Virus record (IMG/VR): IMGVR_UViG_3300017766_005465
Span: 54,538-118,537 of that record
DNA from: a virus
Strand: one strand, 5' to 3'
Length of the DNA: 64,000 nucleotides
The position numbers and the translations under genes are program-made. Below the pieces are notes generated by a model, which did no database searches, was not told where the DNA came from, and saw only the letters and a program-made list of their open reading frames with translations. Shown here piece after piece: positions 875 through 50,977 of the stretch (position 1 is the first letter of the stretch; every line of letters starts with the position of its first letter).

Positions 875-3800
875 TCACTGCTCCTCCCAGGTCAGGGCGT
901 TATTGACTTTGAACGGTGAGGTGGCGGGAGTGGTTGAGCCTAACGCCTGGACCGATATATCGTAGTGGCCCTGGAGGGTGATGATGTCCACCTCGTCGGT
1001 GAGAGGGAAGGACAGATACTCCTTATTGTAGGCGAAGTAATCCTGGAGGTCGAATTGGTAACCCCCGGCGTTCGCGTAGTAGGAGAGGATCTCGTTGCCG
1101 GTATCGGAGATGGGGGTAAGGTCCAGGTCCTGGGCGATCTGCACACCTGAGAGACGGGTGATGTCCTCCCAGGTTGCCAGACCATCGGCCTCAAGGCGAT
1201 TCCACTTAGTCTGGTCGGTGGAGGCGGTCGATCCGAGAATACCTCCGCCGGCGGAGAGCACGGCCTCCGAGAGCACTCCGGCAGAGCTAAGAGTGAGGTG
1301 CCGCTCTGGGATGAAGAGTCCGACGATGTAGATGTCCTCAGGATAGGAGAAGAACTTCTCGAAGAAGTACCCGGCTGAGGTCTGGAATAGTTTTCCGAGG
1401 ATGGGGGTGTAAGCCGCGGGCGAGGTGGATCCGATGGTCCAGCCGGTGGAAGCCGTGGACTGGGACGTGGTGCCCAGGAAGTAACCGTAACGGTACTTTC
1501 CTACTCCGATAGTCGGAGGGGAGGCGAAGCCCACTTGCACGGGCAGAGTCGAGTTCTTAGTATTGACGTAGTTGTTGGAGGTGGTTACAGGATCACGGAC
1601 GATACCCGCTCCGGTGTAAGCCACCGAGGTACCAAGAGATGTCGAGGTATTAGTTACGATGAAGAGTGGGTTCTTAAAGGCTCTCAGGGTGAGAAGTTCA
1701 CCTGAAGTCCCCCCGGTCACGCCCGCTCCGTACTTGATGGGGTAGATCTGGAGGCGGTTGCGGACGGGTTTACCATCTCTGTTGTAGATGAAGTCCTTGG
1801 CGCGGACTGTTAGGAGGGAGCGCTGGGTCCTGGGGGTGACGAGTCTTACGCCTGTGGCGTTGGTCGCCGGAAGCGCGGAGTTGGTGAAGTGGAGGGTAAT
1901 GTCATTACCACTCTGCGTCACCCACTTGACCTTGGCGGTGGAGTCGGATGCCAGGTACGCTCCCATCAGACCAACAGCCACTCCACCGGCCACGTTGGGA
2001 TGGGTTACGGCGGAGTAGGTTAGCTCGGAGGCTGATGTCCTCGTCCAGTTAGTAGCGGTGAAGTCGTAGAAGCCCTTGGGCACCTCACGCTGGAAATCGG
2101 AGGCCTTTGAGAGCAGGCGGACGGTACCTTTATCCCCTCCGTCAATGTAGTAGGAAGCACCGTACTTGACCAGGGTGTTGCCGATGTCCGTCGACTCGAG
2201 TCCGCTCTCCGGACCCCCGTGGATGAGGTAGGTGATGGGGAGGGTGGCATTACCCAGAGAAGCGACCGAGTGCTGGTTGGAGGCTCGGATGTGATGGACT
2301 CTCACCCACCTCGCCTCGTTGTTGCCAACGGGCACGTAGCAGAGGAAGATGGCGCCAACAGCGCCGTACCACGAGAACTCGATCTTCCACATTGTTACCT
2401 TTGTGAAATCGATGTTGTAGGCCGACTGTACTTTTATAACTTCAGCGTTTGCGTCTTTAATAGGCTCTCCAGGAAGGTTGATAACGGAACCGCCTCCTAC
2501 TGTGGTGTCCTCAGCGGCGGTGTTTACGTCACTCCAGCGTAACACCGACTCAGCGCCATCGAGTTTGTCGCCGGAGAACATCGCTCTCACAGGTCTCCAC
2601 TCGTATACCATGCGGTAGGGCTTGGGAACGCACAGGTTGAACCACTCCTTGAGGGTTACGTTGCCGTTGGTGACTGTGCGGGCTTTAACGTTTGCTGGGA
2701 GGCTGGGGGAGGCCGAGTGCTGGGCGTCGGAGATACGATAGCCGGCATCAACACCCTGGGTATTCACCATCAGGTGCCACACCTTCTTCTCACTATTGGA
2801 GGTGGAGGGAGCGGTGTCCCAGGTATTGGCGATGATCGTGGAGTTGTAGGAACTGATCGATGATCCGGCGATGCCCCACTCCGAAGCCTCCAGAGATGTT
2901 TTGTCCGAAGGGAACGTGGTATACGAAGCTTTACGGTTTAAGTTGGAGATAATCTGGTAGAAATTACAGTGAGCGTCAAGGCGAATATAACCGTTAGAAA
3001 GAGTGTCTGAGTGAGTCTGACCGGGGGTATAGACCGGGCCGCTCTTTTTCTGGTCGAATGGGAACTGGAATTTACGATCGGCCATAACCTCCGACCAGAC
3101 TGTTCCGTTGAAAGTCGCGAGGCGAACGGCGTAACCGGAGTCGGACTGGTAGTTCTTCAGAGCTCCGGAGGGGTCTCCTGACGCATCAATAGCGGCAACG
3201 CTCTCGGGAGCGTAGACGAGGGAGGGGTCGTAGATCGCAGCGGCGGTGTAGACTAGGCCGTCTCTCACGATAACCGGGTCGAGTCCCGCCACGCCGAAGT
3301 TGGTCGCTGGAGTGAAGTCGGTGTCGTCGCTGTTCTGGAACCAGCTCAGAGCCCCGGCGTAGCCGGAGGGCTCGGAGGGGATGATGGCCTGCGTCCGACG
3401 AACGCAGCGGAAGTCGTTGCCCTTTCCGGCGTTAGCCGTCTCGAAGTAGTAGCCGTCGAATTTGTCGAAGATGCCCCACTTCTTCAGCGATGGAGCTCCC
3501 TTCATCTTGGCCTGGAGGGCGGAGGTCTGCTCCTCTGGGTCGCGAGTGATGTTCATCTTCACACCCATTGTGGAGGCGGAGACGCGTCCAGGCTGGTAGC
3601 GGAAGAAGCGCTTGGAGGTCAGTACGGTGGTCTTGACGTCCGGAGCCACGAGTCTCGCCCCGGCTTCCTCAGGGATGTGCTCCACACCGTAGTCGATGCC
3701 CTCGCCGCTAGGATCGGGAGTGTTCTCGGGCGGGAACTGAGCCCACTCGGACGGGTTGACGTCGTAGGTGTTAACGTCAGCGAAGATACCCAGCGCCACC

Positions 3801-42536: not shown

Positions 42537-43092
42537 CTCTGGCCTCCAGGCAGCAGCCAGGTGCCCACCAGTCCGGGGCAGGGACTTTTGCCCACTTGGC
42601 AAATCTCCACTTCGTCCAGTTGTAGTAATTGCGGTAGGCTTGGATGGGATCCTCGTAGACTCTGCAGAAGGAGGGCATCGCTTGCACGGGGTCAGTAAGA
42701 CCTCGGTGGGGATAGACGTTCTCGACCATCAGCTTTGACACAGTGCCATTTATCGTGTTACCTTCTGTGCCGTAGTAAAAAGACAGAAGACTTGTCAATC
42801 CGGCGTGCTCCTTGCCAAATCTTTTGCGAAACTCAGCGCATAGGTGGTATGTCATTTCAAACAACCACATAAAATTACCCGTGGACTCCTTGACCCACTT
42901 CGTGCACGGGTGGTTCTTATACGCCCTGGTGGAGTAGTAATTGCCGTCCTTCTTCTTCGCTGGGAGGTAACCGTAATGCACCGCGGCAACACTCATCATC
43001 TGAAGATACTCGATAATCATCTTGTTGACGTGCTTATCGCAGTGAGCCGCTGCGCACTCTCTCGTGTTGGCGGAAAGGAAAAAGATGTTCAT
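42526..43092 (-). CDS. Pyrimidine-dimer DNA glycosylase / DenV-related family protein
   Basis: MNIF.L.......A..HCDKHV.KM..E..Q, NHPC.KW and QAMP...AYR.YY motifs. Confidence 0.75.
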   Translation of the reverse strand: MNIFFLSANTRECAAAHCDKHVNKMIIEYLQMMSVAAVHYGYLPAKKKDGNYYSTRAYKNHPCTKWVKESTGNFMWLFEMTYHLCAEFRKRFGKEHAGLTSLLSFYYGTEGNTINGTVSKLMVENVYPHRGLTDPVQAMPSFCRVYEDPIQAYRNYYNWTKWRFAKWAKVPAPDWWAPGCCLEARGEY

Positions 43093-43162
43093 ACTAAAAA
43101 ACCTCCCTGGATAGTCTGATTCTATCACAGAGAAGGGGAGGGAGTGGGGTGGTAGTGGACGG

Positions 43163-43312
43163 TTAGACGTCGTACTCCCGGCACTCAAGAGCGCTGGGGT
43201 TCTTCCTGCAGTACTCCTCTAGCGAGAGGATAGGAGCCCCGGTGCTCTGATCGATGGGTAGAGTGAAGTCCTCGGAGGACTCTACGTTGTCGGAGAAGGT
43301 TACGTGTTCCAT
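43163..43312 (-). CDS. cp12: Minimal CP12-like protein
   Basis: C-terminus LEEYCRKNPSALECREYDV matches the CP12 C-terminal Cys-pair motif. Confidence 0.75.
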   Translation of the reverse strand: MEHVTFSDNVESSEDFTLPIDQSTGAPILSLEEYCRKNPSALECREYDV

Positions 43313-43327
43313 TGCTGTGGTGTGATA

Positions 43328-43389
<62 letters not shown>

Positions 43390-43399
<10 letters not shown>

Positions 43400-43515
43400 T
43401 CTTCGGGCTCGTCCTCGTAGCTACTAGGTTCCTCGAAGAGCTCGCGCAACTTGAGTCTGTTAGCCAGTTCTAGTAACTGCGAGAAATCCTCTTCCTTGGT
43501 TAGTTGTTCAGCCAT
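43390..43515 (-). CDS. 41-aa acidic hypothetical protein (MAEQLTKEED...LRELFEEPSSYEDE)
   Basis: GTTTAAAG 7 nt upstream of the ATG; stop overlaps the 5' end of tRNA-Val. Confidence 0.5.
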
Positions 43516-43537
43516 CGGAAAGCTTTAAACTGTTTTA

Positions 43538-43621
43538 TGCGCGAGAGAGGACTTGAACCTCCACGGGGTTGCCCCCACGGGTGCCTAAAACCCGGGCGTC
43601 TACCAATTCCGCCACTTGCGC
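43538..43621 (-). tRNA. tRNA-Leu(TAG)
   Basis: CGGGT-TTTAGGC-ACCCG with long variable arm. Confidence 0.92.
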
Positions 43622-43625
43622 GAGG

Positions 43626-43698
43626 TGCTCGATGCGAGGATCGAACTCGCCTATATCCGATTATGAGTCGGGTGCTTTCACCAGATAGCTAATCGAGC
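43626..43698 (-). tRNA. tRNA with CAT anticodon (Ile2 or elongator Met)
   Basis: CCGA-CTCATAA-TCGG; resembles Ile2-type anticodon arms; not an initiator. Confidence 0.88.
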
Positions 43699-43701
43699 GA
43701 G

Positions 43702-43773
43702 TAGGACCGCGGAGACTCGGACTCCGTTCACTCCGTTATAAGCAGAGGGCCTTAACCCATAGGCGACGGTCCC
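43702..43773 (-). tRNA. tRNA-Ile(TAT)
   Basis: CTCTG-CTTATAA-CGGAG; atypical T-loop TCCGAGT. Confidence 0.8.
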
Positions 43774-43778
43774 AAAAC

Positions 43779-43913
43779 TCACCGACCGTGTCTCCGGTGT
43801 ATGTACATTATACCATATGTTGGGACAACAATCAATAGGAGGCTTAGCGTACCGGCTATCTGAAGGTCATAGGTACGCAATGTCTCGCGAATCGACAGGA
43901 ATAAATGATCCAT
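43779..43913 (-). CDS. 44-aa small membrane protein
   Basis: MDHLFLSIRETLRTYDLQIAGTLSLLLIVVPTYGIMYIHRRHGR; one hydrophobic helix; TATAAT upstream. Confidence 0.45.
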   Translation of the reverse strand: MDHLFLSIRETLRTYDLQIAGTLSLLLIVVPTYGIMYIHRRHGR

Positions 43914-44024
43914 CGGTGGTTCTGACAATAAATACGGCGTAGTACCCCGGAAAGTCCGCCGATACCCCTTGTATTATACCCGTTCTCCAAAGTTTGTGGT
44001 AGGTAAAGCCTACGCGTCTCCCTC

Positions 44025-44477
44025 TCATTTGCCGCCGGAGTGGACGGATGGTAGGTTGGGGAACACGGACTCTAGGACGTTAACCTGGCCCACCAGCACC
44101 CCCACAACAAGCAGGGCCCCACCTAACAACCACTTGAATCTCGATAAGTCGTCTATGCGAGAGCCCAGTACCTTCACCTCCTTATCCACCTTCGTATCGA
44201 GGTCACTTATCTCGTCGGTGGTGGACTTTATCTCCCGGGCGTGATTGGACTTTAGCTCATCGAGGAGCTTTATTATCGCTGTGTCTGACTGTATGCTCTG
44301 GTCCAGGCGTTCCTCGTGTCTTACGAGGATCTTCGCCACGTTCTGATTGGCTTCTGAGATCTTGTCTACGGCCGTCTCGAGTTTGGAAAGCATCTCTCTG
44401 GAGAGATCCTCGTAGACGTTTAGTTTTTCCTCTAGAACGGCGAGTCTTACGTTTGAGGAGCCAAATAAGTTAGCCAT
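44025..44477 (-). CDS. Coiled-coil protein with C-terminal transmembrane helix
   Basis: LEEKL..YE.LS..ML.KLE.AV.KI...L..HEERL then WLLGGALLVVGVLV; GTTTAAAG at 44520-44527. Confidence 0.7.
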   Translation of the reverse strand: MANLFGSSNVRLAVLEEKLNVYEDLSREMLSKLETAVDKISEANQNVAKILVRHEERLDQSIQSDTAIIKLLDELKSNHAREIKSTTDEISDLDTKVDKEVKVLGSRIDDLSRFKWLLGGALLVVGVLVGQVNVLESVFPNLPSVHSGGK

Positions 44478-44529
44478 ACGGGATCGGATATGCGTAACGA
44501 ATCGTACTACCAGTTATTACTTTAAACAA

Positions 44530-44603
44530 AGCCCCCTGTCGGACTCGAACCGACGACCTACGGTTTACAAAACCGGTGCTCTATCCAGCTGAGCTAAGGA
44601 GGC
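44530..44603 (-). tRNA. tRNA-Thr(TGT)
   Basis: CGGT-TTTGTAA-ACCG; cloverleaf. Confidence 0.92.
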
Positions 44604-44645
44604 GTATGGGTGGGGGGAGGAGCCTTACGCTCCTCCCGGACAGGA

Positions 44646-45068
44646 TCAGGACTCGGACGCGCCTACAAAGGCCGTTGTGAAACCCTCAGCGGCCGCGTCG
44701 GCTACCAGGCGATCGTTCTCCACGCTGGAGCCGGAGACACCCACGGCGCCCAGAATGGAGCCGTCGGGAGCGGTCAGAGGAAGCCCACCAGGGAAGGTGA
44801 TCAGGCCACCATTGGAGTGCTCGATATTGTACAGGGTACCGCCAGGCTGCGAGAGCTTGCCGATCTCCTCGGTCGGCATGTCGAAGTAGGTCGCGGTGCG
44901 GGCCTTCTTGATCGAGATGTCCACGCTTCCGACCCATGCCCCGTCCTCGCGCGCGAAAGCCACAAGGTTCCCGCCACGGTCCACCACCGCGATATTCATC
45001 TTGGTTTCCAGCTCGGTGCTTTTTCTGAGGCCGGCGTTTACGGCTTGGATTGCTGCGGCGAAATACAT
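44646..45068 (-). CDS. GlcG/HbpS-family haem-binding protein
   Basis: IAVVD.GG.L.AF.R.DGA...S.DI...KA.TA and GGLP....G..LGAVGVSG...E.D motifs. Confidence 0.88.
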
Positions 45069-45120
45069 AGTTTGTTAGTCGGTTTGGAATGATTATACCA
45101 CGTAGTGGGTGGTAAATCAA

Positions 45121-45210
45121 CGGAAGATGTTGGATTTGAACCAACGGAGCCGGGTGTACCGACTCGGCGGTTTAGCAAACCGCTGCCTTAAGCCTCTCAG
45201 CCAATCTTCC
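45121..45210 (-). tRNA. tRNA-Ser(GCT)
   Basis: GCGGT-TTGCTAA-ACCGC with long variable arm. Confidence 0.93.
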
Positions 45211-45228
45211 ATTTTGCCTTTCGGCAAG

Positions 45229-45302
45229 CGCTCTCTGAGAGATTTGAACTCCCGACACCCTGGTCCGTAGCCAGGTGCTCTAGTCCGCTGAGCTAAGAGA
45301 GC
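45229..45302 (-). tRNA. tRNA-Arg(ACG)
   Basis: CCTGG-CTACGGA-CCAGG. Confidence 0.92.
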
Positions 45303-45303
45303 A

Positions 45304-45377
45304 TGGCACCGAAACAAGGACTTGAACCTTGGATAACAGTTTTGGAGACTGTCGTGTTACCACTACACTATTTCGGT
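45304..45377 (-). tRNA. tRNA-Trp(CCA)
   Basis: ACAGT-CTCCAAA-ACTGT; CCA end encoded. Confidence 0.92.
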
Positions 45378-45394
45378 ATGTTGCCCGAAGGCGA

Positions 45395-45467
45395 TTGGAA
45401 CGACGAGGTTTGAACTCGTGACCTCACGATTATCGGTCGTGTGCTCTACCAGCTGAGCTACGTTCCA
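45395..45467 (-). tRNA. tRNA-Ile(GAT)
   Basis: CACGA-CCGATAA-TCGTG (C at position 33). Confidence 0.88.
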
Positions 45468-45471
45468 TTGT

Positions 45472-45525
45472 GTGAAAAGCAGATGCAAATGCAGATTTAA
45501 AATCTGCGGACTTCGTGCTTTTCAC
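45472..45525 (-). ncRNA. Armless tRNA-like hairpin candidate
   Basis: GTGAAAAGC/GCTTTTCAC stem enclosing GCAGA-TTTTAAA-TCTGC. Confidence 0.35.
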
Positions 45526-45586
45526 TTTTTCAAACAGGTTTTCTTATGCTTACCCTAAAAACCTATTATAAAATAGGTAAGCAAAG

Positions 45587-45661
45587 TGGGAACGGCGGGA
45601 CTCGAACCCGCAACACCATGCTTTTCAAACATGTGCTCTACGCAATTGGAGCTACGTTCCC
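45587..45661 (-). tRNA. tRNA-Phe(GAA)
   Basis: CATGT-TTGAAAA-GCATG. Confidence 0.88.
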
Positions 45662-45738
<77 letters not shown>

Positions 45739-45741
45739 ATA

Positions 45742-45814
45742 TACGCCGTGCGGGAATCGAACCCGCTATCCAACTCCCTTGTCGGGGTGTCATTACCATT
45801 TAGACTACCGGCGT
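45742..45814 (-). tRNA. tRNA-like gene with irregular anticodon arm (pseudo-tRNA, undetermined)
   Basis: Acceptor stem (6 of 7 pairs), D arm and T arm GCGGG-TTCGATT-CCCGC are present; anticodon region CCCCGACAAGGGAGTTG cannot form the 5+7+5 arm. Confidence 0.6.
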
Positions 45815-45933
45815 GGGCGTGGGCGAGGGTATCCACCTACGGAAACGGGAACCGTTTCTCTACGATGTGGCTTAGGGGACCCTTCGTTTAAGCCTCCGTT
45901 CCTTGGAGGCCCCGAACCCCCGCGAGGGGGGCA

Positions 45934-46006
45934 TGGAGAGTAGGAGGCTCGAACTCCTGACAGCCTGCTTGCAAAGCAGGTGCTCTACCAGCTGAGCTAA
46001 CTCCCC
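45934..46006 (-). tRNA. tRNA-Ala(TGC)
   Basis: CCTGC-TTTGCAA-GCAGG; G3-U70 pair present. Confidence 0.93.
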
Positions 46007-46074
46007 TGGCGGCCCTTTTGTTAAAGCGGTAGAGCCGAACCGCATCAATGGAGAACGTTTGGACCGTTCTCGAG

Positions 46075-46146
46075 TCGGGGTGAGAGGGATCGAACCTCCG
46101 ACATCCTGCTCCCAAAGCAGGCGCGCTACCGCTGCGCTACACCCCG
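46075..46146 (-). tRNA. tRNA-Pro(TGG)
   Basis: CCTGC-TTTGGGA-GCAGG. Confidence 0.93.
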
Positions 46147-46872
46147 TGATGGCCCCATTTAACACGTGAAACGTTTCAAGAACGCACAGAGGTGGGGGCT
46201 CGTGGCTTCCAGCAGGGCTCGCATATTGGCCGGTAAGAGTGTTTCATCCAGCAGCACCAATGGCAAGACAGCCCTCAAGGAAGCACCACACATTAACGAC
46301 TGTATGAGTGGCCGTGTCGGGAACTTAACGACGTATTCCATACGACTCCGGTGTCTAGAACGGAGGGTGCTTCGTTCTCCCTTGAGCGATCCGAAGAACG
46401 CGGGACGGTGAGGCAAACCGCAGCCCGATGCTACGCCCGGACATTTCCGGACCACGCAGAGCGGGAACGAGGCAGGTGCGGTATCCCCGGCCACAGTTAG
46501 AGACTGCTAGCAAGTACCCGAGACGTCGATGACACGTGCCGGTGTACGCCGGTGCCCATGCTCCTTTTGCTTTCCTTACCTCGGCAGGGTGCCGCTACCT
46601 CCCTTGTTGCGGCGAGTGTGTACGTTTTGTTTACTGGGTACGTTACTAGACCCAGGATACTGCTTACTGTACCCGCATCAAGTCGTGAGTGTCGTTAACG
46701 CTTGAGCATGGAATGGGAGTTCACCCATTCGTAACTTATTTGGGAGCCTGAACTATGACTCTTACAGGCAGTTTGGCATTTTTCTCGCTCCCGGACTACG
46801 CAAACTGCCAAATGGCATCCGGGCACAAGCCTACTTCCCCCTCGTCTAGTAGGCGTCGCATGGACGAGGGAA
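46147..46872 (-). ncRNA. Large structured non-coding RNA candidate (~725 nt)
   Basis: Bounded exactly by tRNA-Asn and tRNA-Pro; no credible ORF; many 6-9 bp helices, two tandem pseudoknots and long-range complementarities. Confidence 0.65.
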
Positions 46873-46944
46873 CTGGCCCGGCAGGGATCGAACCTGCGAC
46901 AACTTGATTAACAGTCAAGCGTTCTACCTCTGAACTACAGGCCA
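46873..46944 (-). tRNA. tRNA-Asn(GTT)
   Basis: CTTGA-CTGTTAA-TCAAG. Confidence 0.93.
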
Positions 46945-47074
46945 TTGTGGGCCCTGGTTATGTTTGCGTTGCTCGCGAGACGCTACAAACATCTTTGTTT
47001 TACAACGGTTCCGGTCCCAGGGCGATGCGACCGCCGTTGCTCTCGGTTTATGAGAGGTTGCCCCGAAGGGCGAG
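46945..47074 (-). ncRNA. Small pseudoknotted RNA candidate
   Basis: Loop GCCCTGG (47017-47023) is complementary to CCAGGGC (46951-46957) across a second hairpin. Confidence 0.5.
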
Positions 47075-47150
47075 AAGCGTAGACGGGCATCGAACCCGCA
47101 AAATATCCATCTTGAAAGGATGGTGACTTTACCAATTTGTCTACTACGCC
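47075..47150 (-). tRNA. tRNA-Glu(TTC)
   Basis: CCATC-CTTTCAA-GATGG. Confidence 0.88.
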
Positions 47151-47153
47151 AGG

Positions 47154-47236
47154 CGGAGAAGAAGGGACTCGAACCCCCGAGGCTTTTACACCCAACAGTT
47201 TTCAAGGCTGCGCCCTCGACCAACCGGACCCTCTCC
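47154..47236 (-). tRNA. tRNA-Ser(TGA)
   Basis: GCAGC-CTTGAAA-ACTGT with long variable arm. Confidence 0.87.
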
Positions 47237-47243
47237 GTGAGGT

Positions 47244-47288
47244 TTGCCACCGGCATTCCGGATTATCAGCTCCGGCGCGAAGTGGCGA
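47244..47288 (-). ncRNA. Armless tRNA-like hairpin candidate with Ile-type loop
   Basis: GCCAC/GTGGC stem enclosing CCGGA-GCTGATAA-TCCGG. Confidence 0.4.
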
Positions 47289-47362
47289 CGACCCATACGG
47301 GATTTGAACCCGTGATCTCCACCGTGACAGGGTGGCGTGATAGACCGCTACACTAATGGGTC
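47289..47362 (-). tRNA. tRNA-Asp(GTC)
   Basis: CCACC-CTGTCAC-GGTGG. Confidence 0.93.
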
Positions 47363-47366
47363 AAGG

Positions 47367-47448
47367 TGGGTAGGGGTGGATTTGAACCACCGATGGCAGA
47401 GCCGCCTGATTTACAGTCAGGTTCCTTAAACCACTCGGACACCTACCC
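47367..47448 (-). tRNA. tRNA-Tyr(GTA)
   Basis: CCTGA-CTGTAAA-TCAGG with variable arm. Confidence 0.93.
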
Positions 47449-47487
47449 AAAACAGTTTATGTTTACCGACCGAGCTGAAACGGTCAA

Positions 47488-47559
47488 TGGGTCTGGTGGG
47501 GCTCGAACCCACAACTTCCAGGTTAAAAGCCCGTTACTCTGCCATTGAGTTACAGACCC
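47488..47559 (-). tRNA. tRNA-Lys(TTT)
   Basis: CGGG-CTTTTAA-CCTG; cloverleaf. Confidence 0.88.
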
Positions 47560-47573
47560 ATAAAAGGTTTAGA

Positions 47574-47664
47574 TTGTCAAGGTTCGGGGGTCGGGAGAGG
47601 GGCCGGAGAAGTCCGTCTCCCTTGACCATGAGACTAATATATCAGAGACGGGAGGCTTTGGGAA
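47574..47664 (-). promoter_or_regulatory. Sigma70-type promoter and boxA-like leader of the tRNA operon
   Basis: TTCCCA-17 nt-TATATT with extended TG (47664-47636), then GAACCTTGACAA (47585-47574) before tRNA-Lys. Confidence 0.55.
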
Positions 47665-47871
47665 TGGCCTGGTAGACGGTTGGTAAGCTGTCCACTTCGG
47701 TCTCCGCGCAAAAGAAAAGAGGGGAGAAGTCTTTTTGACCTCTGCCCCTCCTGTGATTTGCTTATAGAGTTTCCCGTATTAGCAAACAAGAGGGGCCAGC
47801 ACCGCATCTCTCGGTGAGGGGTTCTTAAATGCAATATACGAGAAGTTAGTCATACTAGTCTATAAACACTG

Positions 47872-47958
47872 TCAGTATGTTTCTGACAGTTGATTGATCG
47901 AGTGAAAGAGAAGCACCAGAAAAGCCACGGAGGTGAAGGTGAAGATAACCTCTCCCAT
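47872..47958 (-). CDS. 28-aa hydrophobic peptide coupled to hli
   Basis: MGEVIFTFTSVAFLVLLFHSINQLSETY; TGATG overlap with the hli stop. Confidence 0.5.
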   Translation of the reverse strand: MGEVIFTFTSVAFLVLLFHSINQLSETY

Positions 47959-48077
47959 CACCACACGCCAGGGATGACCTGGCCAGTCACGAAGTACGCA
48001 CCTACAGCGGCCACGAAGCCGAGCATTGCCAGCCGGCCATTGAGCTTTTCGGCCTTCTCAGTAAAGATCTTGTCCAT
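47958..48077 (-). CDS. hli: High-light-inducible protein (39 aa, below the ORF-track cutoff)
   Basis: MDKIFTEKAEKLNGRLAMLGFVAAVGAYFVTGQVIPGVW; ExxNGRxAMxG and TGQxxPG motifs. Confidence 0.92.
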   Translation of the reverse strand: MDKIFTEKAEKLNGRLAMLGFVAAVGAYFVTGQVIPGVW

Positions 48078-48131
48078 TGTTACCTAGTTGGTTTGTAGAG
48101 GTAGGAGGGGAAGGAAACGCTTCAGTCGTCG

Positions 48132-48326
48132 TCAGAAGACTCCGAAGAAGAGCTTACCAGTGAGAGCGTAAGAAACAGCACCAGCAATAATACCGACCAT
48201 AGCCCAGCGTCCATTAGTGCGTTCCTTCACCTGGTTGGGGGTGAGCATGCCGTAGTTTTCGTAGTACATAACAGGCTCTTTGGCCCACATGTTCTGCTGG
48301 CCACGCTCGTTAGTTGTAACCGTCAT
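48132..48326 (-). CDS. hli: High-light-inducible protein
   Basis: MTVTTNERGQQNMWAKEP...ERTNGRWAMVG. Confidence 0.9.
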   Translation of the reverse strand: MTVTTNERGQQNMWAKEPVMYYENYGMLTPNQVKERTNGRWAMVGIIAGAVSYALTGKLFFGVF

Positions 48327-48364
48327 AGAGAAGTCTCTCCACATTTCCTTAACCATCATATCAT

Positions 48365-48390
48365 AAAAATGGGGGGCTTGTGGCCCCCGT
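48365..48390 (-). terminator. Intrinsic terminator after the porin gene
   Basis: GGGGGC-CACAA-GCCCCC followed by ATTTTT. Confidence 0.6.
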
Positions 48391-48424
48391 AGCCAGTTTG
48401 TCAGGAGACCCTGACTTCGCCCGC

Positions 48425-49930
48425 TCAGAAGGTGAACTTCGTCTGGATCACACCACCGAAGTTAGAGGAGGCTCCGGTGAAAGCCTGGTTGTTGGTCACG
48501 TAGAAGACGGCGGGAGTGATGGAGATGTTGTCACTTACGCGGTACTTGTAGAACACTTCCCACATCAGAGCGTCCTTGGAGATGCTCGAAGCGTTTCCGG
48601 GTTGGCCGATAGCGAAACCAGCGCCGTTCCCCTTGGCGAACACGTCGCTCCACTGAAGACCGGCGTACCAGGTCTGGGAGTCAGTCGCGCCGGCGGGGGT
48701 CGGCTTGTTCTGGGCATTCAGACCCACCGTATTCCATCCGTAACCGCCACTGATCGAGGGCACGATCCCCGACTTGGAGGGTTGCCAGTAGGCGCTGATG
48801 GCGTAACCGTTAGAGGTCTGGCCCGGGGCGAGCGTGCCCGAACCGCCATTCAGAGCGTTGAAGGTTCTCACGCGGGTTCCCTCGGTGCCATAACGGTAGC
48901 CAAACGCGATTCCGTACTGGGGGGCGCGGTAACCGATCTGAGCCAGGGTGTTCAGAGCGCCGGACTCGTTGAACTCCCCTTTGGTTGAATCGCTGCCGTT
49001 CTGGGCAACGTAGTTCAGGCCGACAACCACTCCACCTTTCTTACCGGGTTGGACGTACTGGACACCGAAACCCGCACCAGTGGCCTTATTATAGACCCCA
49101 GGGGCACCCGCGAGCTGGAAGAAGTCGAGGATCTCGGACTTGTACGCCGAGGGGATCCAGGCCATCTCTGTATTGCGGACCAGAGCACCGGCCGTGGCCT
49201 TCATGCCCTTGGTCAGGACAGGGAACTGGTAGTAGAGACGGTCGAGAGTGACGTTGTTAGAGGTGCTCTCGGCTTTGTCCAGTTTGAACAGAGAAGAGCT
49301 GGAGCCAAATGGCTGGGAGGAGAAGTTACCCGAGCGCAGGCGGGTGCGCAGGAGATCCTTGCCCGTGAACGAAGTGTCGAAGTTTAGCCGGAGATCGTAG
49401 TTGAAAGCGGTCTCGCCAACATTGGTGGAGGGGGCGTTTCTGCCGACTCCGGGTGTGCGGGCTCCGTCAACTCCACCGAGGACAAAACTAGCCTCACCAC
49501 GGAGCTTGGTGGTCGTGGAGAACTGAGTTGCCTCCAGAGCGCCGACCTTGGCCTCGAGCTTGCTCACCCGGCCACGAATCACGGCCAACTCAGCGGAGAA
49601 CTCACGTGCAAGACGGTTGAGCTCGTCGGTGGCTTCAGTGACTCGGTCGAGGCAGGAGTTCAGCAGCGCGGCTGCCTCGAAGCGGGTCATGGACTGACCA
49701 CCGGCAAAGGTGCCGTTGGGGTAACCGGCTACGCAACCGTACCGATCCACCAGATTGCTTAGAGCCTGGTAGGCCCAGTCGGTCGGCTTAACGTCGGAGA
49801 ACTGGGTGATGCTGGTGACCTGGTCCGCCGAGGCGTACTTACTAACGCCGGCGAGGTTCAGGTCGGTTGCCATGGCGGCTCCAGGGCTGATCAGACCCAG
49901 AGTACCCACGACAGCGATGAAGCTTTTCAT
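48425..49930 (-). CDS. Cyanobacterial outer-membrane porin with SLH domain (Som/OprB-type)
   Basis: Signal peptide; FSDV.PTDWAYQAL..L..RYGC.AGYP, QFSTTTKL.G and NFDTSFTGKD.L.TRL motifs; terminal Phe. Confidence 0.93.
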   Translation of the reverse strand: MKSFIAVVGTLGLISPGAAMATDLNLAGVSKYASADQVTSITQFSDVKPTDWAYQALSNLVDRYGCVAGYPNGTFAGGQSMTRFEAAALLNSCLDRVTEATDELNRLAREFSAELAVIRGRVSKLEAKVGALEATQFSTTTKLRGEASFVLGGVDGARTPGVGRNAPSTNVGETAFNYDLRLNFDTSFTGKDLLRTRLRSGNFSSQPFGSSSSLFKLDKAESTSNNVTLDRLYYQFPVLTKGMKATAGALVRNTEMAWIPSAYKSEILDFFQLAGAPGVYNKATGAGFGVQYVQPGKKGGVVVGLNYVAQNGSDSTKGEFNESGALNTLAQIGYRAPQYGIAFGYRYGTEGTRVRTFNALNGGSGTLAPGQTSNGYAISAYWQPSKSGIVPSISGGYGWNTVGLNAQNKPTPAGATDSQTWYAGLQWSDVFAKGNGAGFAIGQPGNASSISKDALMWEVFYKYRVSDNISITPAVFYVTNNQAFTGASSNFGGVIQTKFTF

Positions 49931-50014
49931 ACTTTCTTAAGATTGTTTGAGACAGAAAGGGGTTACGCGTCTCTCTAGGCTATCTGCCTAGCAACTACGT
50001 TGTTATCCCCTAAG

Positions 50015-50086
50015 AGCGGAATAGGGGATTTGAACCCCTGACATCCTACTTGGAAGGAAGGCGCTCTACCGCTGAGCTAATTCCGC
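50015..50086 (-). tRNA. tRNA-Gly(TCC)
   Basis: Loop CTTCCAA; cloverleaf; extended -10 TGATATGAT upstream. Confidence 0.9.
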
Positions 50087-50119
50087 ATTGTACTATCATA
50101 TCAGAGGATGACACGCGTG

Positions 50120-50977
50120 TCAATCCATCTGTGACAGTTTGTTAAAGTACTCTAAACCGATTTGGGAGCGTTTGGCAACCGCGGCTTTGGACTGACCCTT
50201 AGCGGCTTTGTAAGCGTCGATGGAGTCGCGGACAAGGTTGACGTAGGGGTCCTTGTCGAGCTCGGGCCTGTAGATGTCGATGAGCTTACCCACCTTATTG
50301 AAATCCACTAGGGCTTTATTGGGCTGGTCCTGGATCTTACCGGAGAGGCCGTAGTCGATGAGGGTGGCGTCCTTGCCCCCCTCACCGTCGGTAAGGAACT
50401 GCTCGTTGTGCATGTCGCCATGATAGAAGCCCATCTTATGGAGGTCCTTGATGGCCGACAGGGCCTTGGAGGCCTGTTCGGTGGTCATCTTGACGTCCCG
50501 CTCCTTCTCGTCGTCGGTCCGGTTGAAACCGCCCGACCAGAGGGGCTTGCCCTTGGAAAAATCCATCTCGATATGGTCCTTGGAGGCGGAGTAGATCTTA
50601 GGGGAGTGGCCAAGCTCTCCCATCTTCCGCCCCAGCTCCACCTCGTGGGGTCCCCACTCCTTACCCTCCTTGAGGGTCTTGACAACGTGGCCGGTCTGTG
50701 GATCCTGGTAGACCACACCGTAGTTGCCCTCGGCGAGCTTTTTCATCTTGGAGATGTCTGGCATACCGGAGGAGCCGGGGGACTTCTGCTGCCCTCCTAC
50801 TCTATCATCGCCACCCACCAGCTTCCACCGCCCATTAGCCTGTTTCTGAAGTGTATGGCCGGACTGGGGATTGCGATAAACCTGCCCAGGCGTAGCGGTC
50901 TTCTTGATGGACTCCGGGACCATCTCGTCGGAGTAGGAGGCCTGTCTCCAGCCCTCAGGCCACCATCCAAGTGTCAT
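50120..50977 (-). CDS. Ser/Thr protein kinase-like protein
   Basis: LAEGNYGVVY, VVK, HGDMHNEQ and IDYG motifs. Confidence 0.82.
   Translation of the reverse strand: MTLGWWPEGWRQASYSDEMVPESIKKTATPGQVYRNPQSGHTLQKQANGRWKLVGGDDRVGGQQKSPGSSGMPDISKMKKLAEGNYGVVYQDPQTGHVVKTLKEGKEWGPHEVELGRKMGELGHSPKIYSASKDHIEMDFSKGKPLWSGGFNRTDDEKERDVKMTTEQASKALSAIKDLHKMGFYHGDMHNEQFLTDGEGGKDATLIDYGLSGKIQDQPNKALVDFNKVGKLIDIYRPELDKDPYVNLVRDSIDAYKAAKGQSKAAVAKRSQIGLEYFNKLSQMD

Follow-up and report, generated by a model that had tools for sequence, protein, structure and literature searches.

The window analysed here is a stretch of 64,000 nucleotides from a virus record in IMG/VR, which spans 118.5 kb and has an estimated completeness of 73%. 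The family-A polymerase of the record carries a mitochondrial-type exonuclease domain and is 71% identical to its counterpart in cyanophage S-TIM5, and the sequencing runs holding the stretch are labelled as freshwater or lake metagenomes; the source is therefore a TIM5-like freshwater cyanophage. ARAGORN identifies an array of 19 tRNA genes on the minus strand, from 43328 to 50086, which adjoins an OprB/SLH porin gene. Within this array, a gap of 726 nt (46147-46872, minus strand) is bounded exactly by genes for tRNA-Asn(GTT) and tRNA-Pro(TGG), both on the minus strand. Both boundaries are confirmed by ARAGORN and Rfam, in agreement with an earlier sequence-only reading that had described a gap of about 725 nt at this position. 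The CCA end of tRNA-Asn is not encoded, and the sequence continues with TTCC. Every helix listed in the sequence-only reading is likewise present in the sequence where that reading had placed it.

The spacer was divided into eight modules (A1, A2, B1, F1, F2, X, C and E), each of which was searched against all loci (Table 1). The loci comprise 38 polymerase-anchored loci from IMG/VR and further loci added through pattern scans and a metagenome scan; they are designated by L-numbers below.

Table 1. Position and content of the spacer modules and of the two tRNA genes that bound them.
Feature	Coordinates	Strand	Description
tRNA-Asn(GTT)	46873..46944	-	Upstream boundary of the spacer; ARAGORN, Rfam tRNA 70.1 bits
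A1	46826..46872	-	First H-type pseudoknot (PK1); stem 1 CCCTCGTC/GACGAGGG, stem 2 GCCTACT/AGTAGGC
A2	46766..46825	-	Member of a recurrent pseudoknot motif of ~58 nt (PK2); model R1 80 bits, E 6e-20
B1	46587..46765	-	Hairpins; carries CCATGCTC and TTAACGAC of the sequence-only reading
F1	46465..46586	-	Variable inserted hairpin between conserved ends GAGGUAAGGAAAG..GGAGCAUGGG and AUACCGCACCUGCCUC
F2	46428..46464	-	CCGCUCUGCGUGG, hairpin UCCGGAAAUGUCCGGG, CGUAGCAU; 7 distinct copies in relatives
X	46369..46427	-	CGGU..ACCG hairpin, inner UUCG-tetraloop hairpin of variable sequence, conserved GGGAGAACGA tail; 10 distinct copies in relatives
C	46210..46368	-	Invariant 5-bp hairpin CUCCG..CGGAG, two CGUUAA, CGGCCAC, long hairpin GCUUCC..AGGGCU/AGCCCU..GGAAGC
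E	46147..46209	-	Small variable hairpin between invariant GCCCCCACCUCUG and ACGUGUUAAA; abuts tRNA-Pro; 15 distinct copies in relatives
tRNA-Pro(TGG)	46074..46146	-	Downstream boundary of the spacer; ARAGORN, Rfam

Relatives carry these modules as a mosaic. When the 726-nt sequence was used as a query, nhmmer matched five of the 38 polymerase-anchored relatives, always as segments, and when eight tRNA-Asn/tRNA-Pro spacers (383-953 nt) are aligned, entire cassettes prove to be present, absent or replaced. At least one module occurs in 55 loci, which fall into 21 order classes. At least two modules are found in 17 order classes, and their order is the same in 17/17; A mostly comes first in the chain and E mostly last. 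The full set of eight is limited to the window and L046/L113, while the smallest form, tRNA-Asn-A1-A2-E-tRNA-Pro, is seen in L117/L120. Modules also occur singly between other tRNA genes: A in a tRNA-Asp/tRNA-Ser spacer (L009), C in a tRNA-Ala/tRNA-Phe spacer (L007), and E before tRNA-Pro (L056) and tRNA-His (L055). A tRNA gene lies between modules in 2/17 classes, namely tRNA-Lys in L035/L042 and tRNA-Tyr in L114, and the full-length query revealed a third such case with tRNA-His between segments in L051. Nothing separates the modules in the window phage. Judged by these arrangements, modules are gained and lost rather than permuted. Since their order is kept while their content varies, the comparison points to descent from a long ancestral spacer through deletions and replacements, not through free shuffling. 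Such collinearity is expected from common descent with deletions and agrees just as well with one RNA whose domains can be dispensed with; it is no proof of autonomy.

The modules differ in their distribution and in the variation that they display. Module A1 occurs in L009, L044, L108, L035 and L117. Module B1 is restricted to close relatives (L002, L003, L041, L045, L046, L048, L053, L113, L119), and its hairpin CUGGGU/ACCCAG is compensated in L041 and L046. F1 is present without B1 in L093, L099 and L114, and a different cassette takes its place in L002, L041 and L045. As B1 and F1 are known from close relatives only, their structure is weakly tested. An insert in L003 contains tRNA T-arm-like remnants. 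F2 is collinear with X in L115, L121, L093 and L052, and variants of X were recognized by eye, with no formal score, in L099, L071, L005 and L056. Part of module C is substituted by an alternative sub-domain in L035 and L052. The first hairpin of C does not vary in any copy. Its long hairpin has four pairs changed on both sides across eight sequences, mostly due to L007; the sequence-only reading had listed it among the helices that close domains, and it is one of the local elements that go beyond chance. For module E, compensation is seen in 2/7 predicted pairs, with a weak consensus fold.

The best-supported module is A2, which on comparative grounds is a compact H-type pseudoknot whose loops are invariant and whose stems covary freely. 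Stem S1 pairs 46823-46818 with 46795-46790 (CCCGGA/TCCGGG) and stem S2 pairs 46809-46801 with 46775-46767 (GGCAGTTTG/CAAACTGCC); the conserved loops read GAUGCC-R-U-Y-U, C-N-U-A-R-U and A-rich. The motif was defined from seven copies and then searched for (model R1), with an S1 of 6-7 bp, an S2 of 8-9 bp, H-type order and conserved loops as its definition. The window copy has all of these features and lies between same-strand tRNA genes, as nearly all members of the motif do. A stricter pattern retrieved 47 distinct 70-mers over all loci, with both stems paired in 45/47; same-strand tRNAs lie within 1 kb of 44/45 true motif copies, the exception being a locus of 1.5 kb, and the two unpaired 70-mers have no tRNAs nearby. 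Among 185,579 prokaryote species, each represented by one genome, the pattern gave no true hit, the one match being unpaired and without tRNAs. This match (L086), which is one of the two unpaired 70-mers, was dropped as a motif copy together with the metagenome loci L101 and L105, given that they show neither pairing nor tRNAs. Among the matches of a looser pattern to viral contigs, those in L057, L059, L063, L064, L074, L075, L076, L077, L083 and L085 are unpaired, have no nearby tRNAs and are attributed to chance, and L058, L061 and L067 (27-28% GC, no tRNAs) represent an ambiguous AT-rich look-alike; the alignments omit both sets.

Covariation of the A2 stems is pronounced. In the MAFFT alignment (alignment A1, 21 sequences), S1 is paired in 94.6% of cells compared with 77.6% after shuffling (0/500). 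The model alignment (alignment A4; 56 matches, 48 distinct rows), which is fitted to S2 and consists of related sequences, has both helices paired in 88.5% of 767 cells against 74.7% when shuffled, a value reached by 0/500 shuffles. It also contains 99 cells in which both sides are changed, compared with 30.2 after shuffling (0/500), and yields a covariation score of 0.417 against 0.171 (0/500), while slid registers are 35-51% paired. By stem, pairing in alignment A4 amounts to 96.7% for S1 and 82.1% for S2, the latter being an underestimate because the 3' strand of S2 is one column off register in ~10 rows of alignment A1 and of the model alignments A2 and A4. A register search found 8.73/10 positions paired with a sequence's own partner versus 7.61 with the partners of other sequences. 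The stems change completely while the loops stay fixed, for example CCCGGA/UCCGGG, CAUCAGA/UCUGAUG and CCACAGA/UCUGUGG, on contigs that span 33-56% GC and two phage lineages. Many of the pairs are U.G and G.U, which is compatible with the tRNA strand only. In PK1, stem 1 exists in five fully compensated versions among eight distinct sequences, and a single pair of stem 2 varies and covaries (C-G, U.G, U-A). Based on this covariation, both 5' pseudoknots are real, as the sequence-only reading had proposed.

The motif extends beyond TIM5-like phages. The cultured T4-like Synechococcus phage S-SZBM1 contains an unannotated copy (R1 73.9 bits) between tRNA-Pro and tRNA-Ala, after a different hairpin, and in T4-like phage arrays A2 is found unaccompanied by the remaining modules. 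S-TIM5 and a 100%-complete relative of 159 kb are without the motif, and three further large records contain a single copy each. Other array spacers harbor RNAs of recognized families. The pseudoknot spacer of S-SZBM1 ends in an abiF RNA motif, as does that of L084 (50.6 bits, gathering score 37), and the L115 array includes a permuted cyanobacterial tmRNA (116 bits). On the strength of these matches, array spacers of these phages demonstrably host small RNAs of functional type.

Searches against known families place the spacer outside all of them. At the gathering threshold, Rfam 15 reports tRNAs only across the whole window and nothing in the spacer; at E<=10, with 7.5 kb (43000-50500) and the 726 nt alone as targets, the spacer has no match at all. 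This is in line with the sequence-only reading insofar as it envisaged a new class of RNA as one possibility, and it counts against membership of GOLLD (RF01998) or ROOL (RF03087), which that reading had also considered. Neither covariance model matches, that of GOLLD corresponding to its conserved 3' domain; the phage location near tRNA genes is a context shared with GOLLD and is not diagnostic. A tmRNA, permuted cyanobacterial forms included, was detected neither by ARAGORN in the window nor by Rfam, the means by which the tmRNA of L115 was detected. HDV-like/theta ribozymes are tRNA-associated in phages and form a nested double pseudoknot with the strand order P1-P2-P3-P3'-P1'-P4-P4'-P2'. 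Module A has two consecutive, un-nested H-type pseudoknots, and no Rfam ribozyme matches at E<=10. The abiF and type III antitoxin RNAs were also rejected, as RF03085 has no match in the whole virus record and no tandem repeats were seen in the alignments. Module A2 and the loop of the C hairpin were considered as look-alikes of known small pseudoknot riboswitches, an idea dropped for want of an Rfam hit at E<=10. The spacer thus belongs to none of GOLLD, ROOL, tmRNA, HDV-like ribozymes and abiF. Among 50,697 phage records, blastn found no match to the 726-nt sequence, and no description of the A2 motif was found in the article texts searched.

Evidence for expression comes from RNA libraries. 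Parts of the stretch are present in 20 of the 22 runs listed, and six of these 20 are recorded as RNA. Four RNA runs from four studies were examined; the evidence consists of contigs, which establish that the sequence is present in RNA libraries and continuous over module borders. They do not reveal RNA ends, strandedness or actual abundance, and may stem from carried-over DNA. In run X12, an exact contig of 604 nt (46231-46834) has a depth of 137 compared with 7-25 for neighbouring phage contigs and runs unbroken across six of the eight modules. Run X16 has exact contigs over 46410-46859 at depth 14 and none in 47448-48500, and X17 has exact contigs over 46410-46860 at depth 27 compared with 0-3.5 in the flanks. 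Run X18 contains a 1302-nt contig of an L003-like variant that extends from tRNA-Pro through tRNA-Asn into tRNA-Asp at depth 106 against 24. The depth of spacer contigs therefore exceeds that of neighbouring phage contigs in 4/4 RNA runs. Contig stops at 46410 and 46859/46860, which recur in two studies, were not taken as RNA ends, as they coincide with strain-variable sites.

The spacer could be a single large RNA made up of several domains, a new class comparable to GOLLD, in which a conserved 5' pseudoknot domain and 3' element flank dispensable, exchangeable inner domains and which acts as one molecule or assembly. The unpermuted module order, the usual start with A and end with E, and the unbroken 604-nt contig are all consistent with this. 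GOLLD itself has a variable 5' region and sometimes carries tRNAs in its linker (PMC12286853). However, the occurrence of A, C and E alone between other tRNAs, the presence of A2 without companions in T4-like phage arrays and the lack of a GOLLD or ROOL match argue against it, as does the lack of conservation of the proposed long-range helices. Relatives keep one strand of these helices after the other is lost. For the proposed domain closure CCATGCTC/GAGCATGG, the 5' strand is kept in L002, L041 and L045 with another cassette at the 3' strand, and L093, L099 and L114 keep GAGCATGG without module B1. Likewise, L007, L054, L052 and L035 retain CGGCCAC without the GTGGCCG of a second proposed closure, and the same four loci keep both CGTTAA copies without their supposed partner TTAACGAC. 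A loop pairing between CTCAAGG and CCTTGAG shows uncompensated changes in L045 and L046. The repeat CGGGTAC..AGCAGT does occur twice, as had been noted, and its first copy is replaced in L041 and L046.

Counts of complementary segments lead in the same direction. Perfect complementarities more than 100 nt apart number 15 of 7 nt and five of 8 nt in the spacer, compared with 12.5+-4.8 and 3.3+-2.5 in dinucleotide shuffles, and the observed counts are reached in 61/200 and 58/200 shuffles. Long-range complementarity is at chance level, and this applies to every inter-module helix proposed, including the one-to-two pairing of TTAACGAC with GTCGTTAA that had been suggested to act as a switch; all covarying helices are local. 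The flanks, the non-coding nature and the local pseudoknots described in the sequence-only reading are thus borne out, while its long-range architecture is not. Covariation among homologues, which it had put forward as a check, is found for local elements (A2, PK1 stem 1, the C long hairpin) and not for the inter-module helices. It had also regarded a folding energy no better than shuffled controls as contrary evidence, and this is what was observed: the whole-region minimum free energy (MFE) has a z-score of -0.05, and modules range from -2.34 (first half of B1) to +0.06 and are near zero for most, in nested folding that ignores pseudoknots, the whole-region value being uninformative. The case for structure consequently rests on comparative data. 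With these results in mind, we regard a single large RNA as unlikely; the spacer appears to be a row of small modules, each conserved on its own, and not a single giant ornate RNA.

Some modules might instead be DNA-level signals, such as internal promoters or protein-binding sites of the array. In module E, the invariant GCCCCCACCTCTG and ACGTGTTAAA keep an almost constant distance to the tRNA that follows, and most arrangements place E immediately ahead of a tRNA; the version of the motif in L093 and L115, TGTTAAAAT, by eye resembles an extended -10 box. Module C has the invariant palindrome CTCCG..TCTAGA..CGGAG, and sequence conservation in these stretches goes along with little covariation or none. 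Against this, a scan for the sigma-70 consensus brought up no promoter-like site in the spacer, pairing in the inner hairpin of E persists while its sequence and length vary, and C is covered by RNA-library contigs, as is E in X18. We consider this explanation very unlikely. The spacer interior also has no terminator-like site, and promoter-like sites are located upstream of the array at 47664-47636, 47862-47833 and 50123-50095.

Neutral filler is another candidate: decayed tRNA genes and recombination scars that provide spacing only and look conserved through recent relatedness. The T-arm-like remnants in L003, the restriction of B1 and F1 to close relatives, the free replacement of cassettes and the mostly near-zero MFE z-scores would all fit. 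Nevertheless, invariant loops with two covarying stems in A2, across such a range of GC content and two phage lineages, count against it; a tRNA-model search of the 726 nt has no match even at E<=10, and contig depth rises above the flanks in all four RNA runs. We therefore hold neutral filler to be highly improbable. A small protein can be set aside almost entirely: although the short spacer ORFs, which overlap on both strands, include one of 111 aa with a GTG start on the tRNA strand (46159-46494), it matches nothing in Pfam or PHROG, L002, L041 and L045 lack the region of its start, and indels of 1 nt and other non-multiples of three as well as whole-cassette replacements occur within it in relatives. 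A Shine-Dalgarno-like AAGGAG with AUG in module F1 was also discounted as a gene start, since by eye it opens a frame of just 20 codons that is not conserved in L093. In accordance with the sequence-only reading, the array spacer contains no credible ORF; it is a non-coding structured RNA on the tRNA strand and, going by the RNA-library contigs, an expressed one.

The reading that we favour, and judge to be probable, is that the spacer is a tRNA-punctuated chain of about eight autonomous, independently folding small RNAs in the order A1-A2-B1-F1-F2-X-C-E. The chain would be transcribed within the polycistronic precursor of the tRNA array and probably leaves it via tRNA processing: enzymes that mature the flanking tRNAs would release it by an RNase Z-type cut after tRNA-Asn and an RNase P cut before tRNA-Pro. 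This phage would produce one piece of ~726 nt because no tRNA interrupts its modules, and relatives with fewer modules or intervening tRNA genes would produce shorter pieces. The modules would be separate units of selection, and the array would be a platform on which small stable RNAs are expressed and processed; our guess is that these RNAs are decoys that bind factors of the host or the phage. Shielding the ends of the freed RNA may be a further role of the 5' double pseudoknot and the 3' element. We infer the processing, stability and any binding or anti-defence role of this RNA; decoy or anti-defence cargo and end-protecting caps are guesses, the decoy idea being drawn by analogy with abiF in relatives, and abiF is absent from this genome.

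A bolder version, which we think quite unlikely, is that the spacer is excised intact as a polyvalent RNA of ~0.73 kb, in which interchangeable inner modules lie between the double pseudoknot of A, acting as a 5' cap, and E as the 3' element. Each of these would sequester a different host factor, for example abortive-infection nucleases of the RNA-neutralised AbiF kind. If this were true, the RNA would be a modular anti-defence decoy concatemer with a nuclease-resistant 5' cap, made at no cost by host tRNA-processing enzymes, and its domain content would evolve by insertion and deletion.

Several known systems resemble the proposed chain in part. T4 species 1 and species 2 (rnaC, rnaD) are small stable non-coding RNAs of the T4 tRNA gene cluster and are encoded on the same strand as the tRNAs; they are co-transcribed with the tRNAs, freed by the tRNA-processing machinery, and of unknown function. 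By this description, the window spacer is similar in being non-coding RNA among same-strand phage tRNA genes. The T4 RNAs are single units, whereas the spacer is a chain of about eight modules, and the pseudoknot motif is confined, as far as sampled, to cyanophage-like contigs. In the tRNA punctuation model of mitochondrial polycistronic transcripts, tRNAs are the processing signals that release intervening RNAs. The RNAs freed there are mRNAs and rRNAs, in contrast to the short non-coding modules that would be released here. GOLLD and ROOL share with the spacer a phage-borne, tRNA-adjacent location, a length of several hundred nucleotides, abundant pseudoknots and variable domain content; the spacer differs in lacking both a covariance-model match at E<=10 and a conserved long-range architecture, and in having modules that occur singly elsewhere.

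The abiF motif is a precedent for decoy-type cargo, in that it too is a small structured RNA in tRNA-array spacers of relatives and shares its spacer with the pseudoknot in L084 and S-SZBM1. The window modules are unrelated to abiF in sequence and fold. According to a preprint, abiF motif RNA (RF03085) is the antitoxin of AbiF/Abi_2 toxins and neutralises an AbiF toxin in C. difficile (bioRxiv 10.1101/2025.04.15.648962). The motif has also been noted in cyanophage S-CREM1 (PMC9964418).

The usual view of phage tRNA arrays is confined to codon supply or a defence against anticodon nucleases. The array spacers described here hold conserved, covarying and expressed RNA modules missing from every catalogue. 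Given these modules, and an antitoxin-type RNA and a tmRNA in the same slots of relatives, the array looks like a general platform that delivers small RNAs. A long tRNA-flanked gap is not automatically a GOLLD-like giant. TIM5-like and T4-like cyanophages have the A2 pseudoknot in common, the scanned cellular genomes lack it, and S-SZBM1 on Synechococcus CB0101 provides a tractable system in which to study module function.

The tRNA array of the window contains tRNA-like sequences that were not called as tRNA genes by ARAGORN. The program missed a long-arm tRNA-like gene, which matched the Rfam tRNA-Sec model below its cut-off; in the matching slot of the relative L002, between tRNA-Asp and tRNA-Asn, a tRNA-Ser(TGA) was called. 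An additional match to the tRNA model likewise received no tRNA call. A YrlA-like match overlaps it but is weak, falling below cut-off at 32.7 bits, and probably reflects tRNA-likeness. On first reading, from sequence alone, the spacers 46945-47074, 47244-47288, and 45472-45525 were noted as candidate small structured or armless tRNA-like elements.

Features of the window's array and of related loci
Feature	Location	Strand	Match
Long-arm tRNA-like gene	window 47154-47237	-	Rfam tRNA-Sec model, 37 bits, below cut-off
Additional tRNA-model match	window 45742-45814	-	RF00005, 34.3 bits, above 29-bit cut-off
OprB-family porin with SLH domain, 501 aa	window 48425-49930	-	Pfam E 1.7e-17 and 6.4e-10
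Replacement cassette	L003:990-1295	+	
Module C with CA run	L051:3534-3798	-	
Permuted tmRNA	L115:6319-6574	-	RF01851, 116 bits; RF04321, 103 bits
abiF RNA motif	L084:1093-1129	-	RF03085, 50.6 bits
abiF RNA motif	L126 (S-SZBM1), about 1738-1774	+	

Beside the array, the phage encodes a porin of the cyanobacterial outer-membrane type, for which no PHROG match was found. An ORF-poor stretch of ~860 nt (47561-48424) extends from tRNA-Lys to the porin gene. It is covered by contigs from the RNA libraries and contains promoter-like sites at 47664-47636 and 47862-47833, as well as a terminator-like hairpin at 48388-48372.

Modules of the 726-nt spacer are replaced or varied in relatives. In the close relative L003, a cassette stands in place of part of the spacer; besides a second copy of the pseudoknot, of type B, it carries two GGTTCGATTCC stretches that resemble T-arms and appear to be decayed tRNA genes. 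In L051, a loop of module C is filled by a run of CA dinucleotides (CACACACACACACACACA); the corresponding loop in the window is short and unique.

Known small RNAs also occur in the relatives' arrays. A permuted cyanobacterial-type tmRNA lies within the array of a related metagenome contig (L115) and looks like a phage-borne two-piece tmRNA. The abiF RNA motif, found in L084 and in the cultured Synechococcus phage S-SZBM1 and recognized by eye in L078, immediately precedes a tRNA gene and shares its spacer with the pseudoknot motif. In these spacers it may represent a phage-carried orphan antitoxin-type RNA.

Further recurrent modules, none present in the window, were observed in the spacers of L035, L044, L051, L073, and L084. 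These include a hairpin, CCCACACUGCUCUGUCGGUGUGG, and a nested hairpin, GCCAC..CCGGAAAGAUAAACCGG..GGUGGC, with covariation in both stems.
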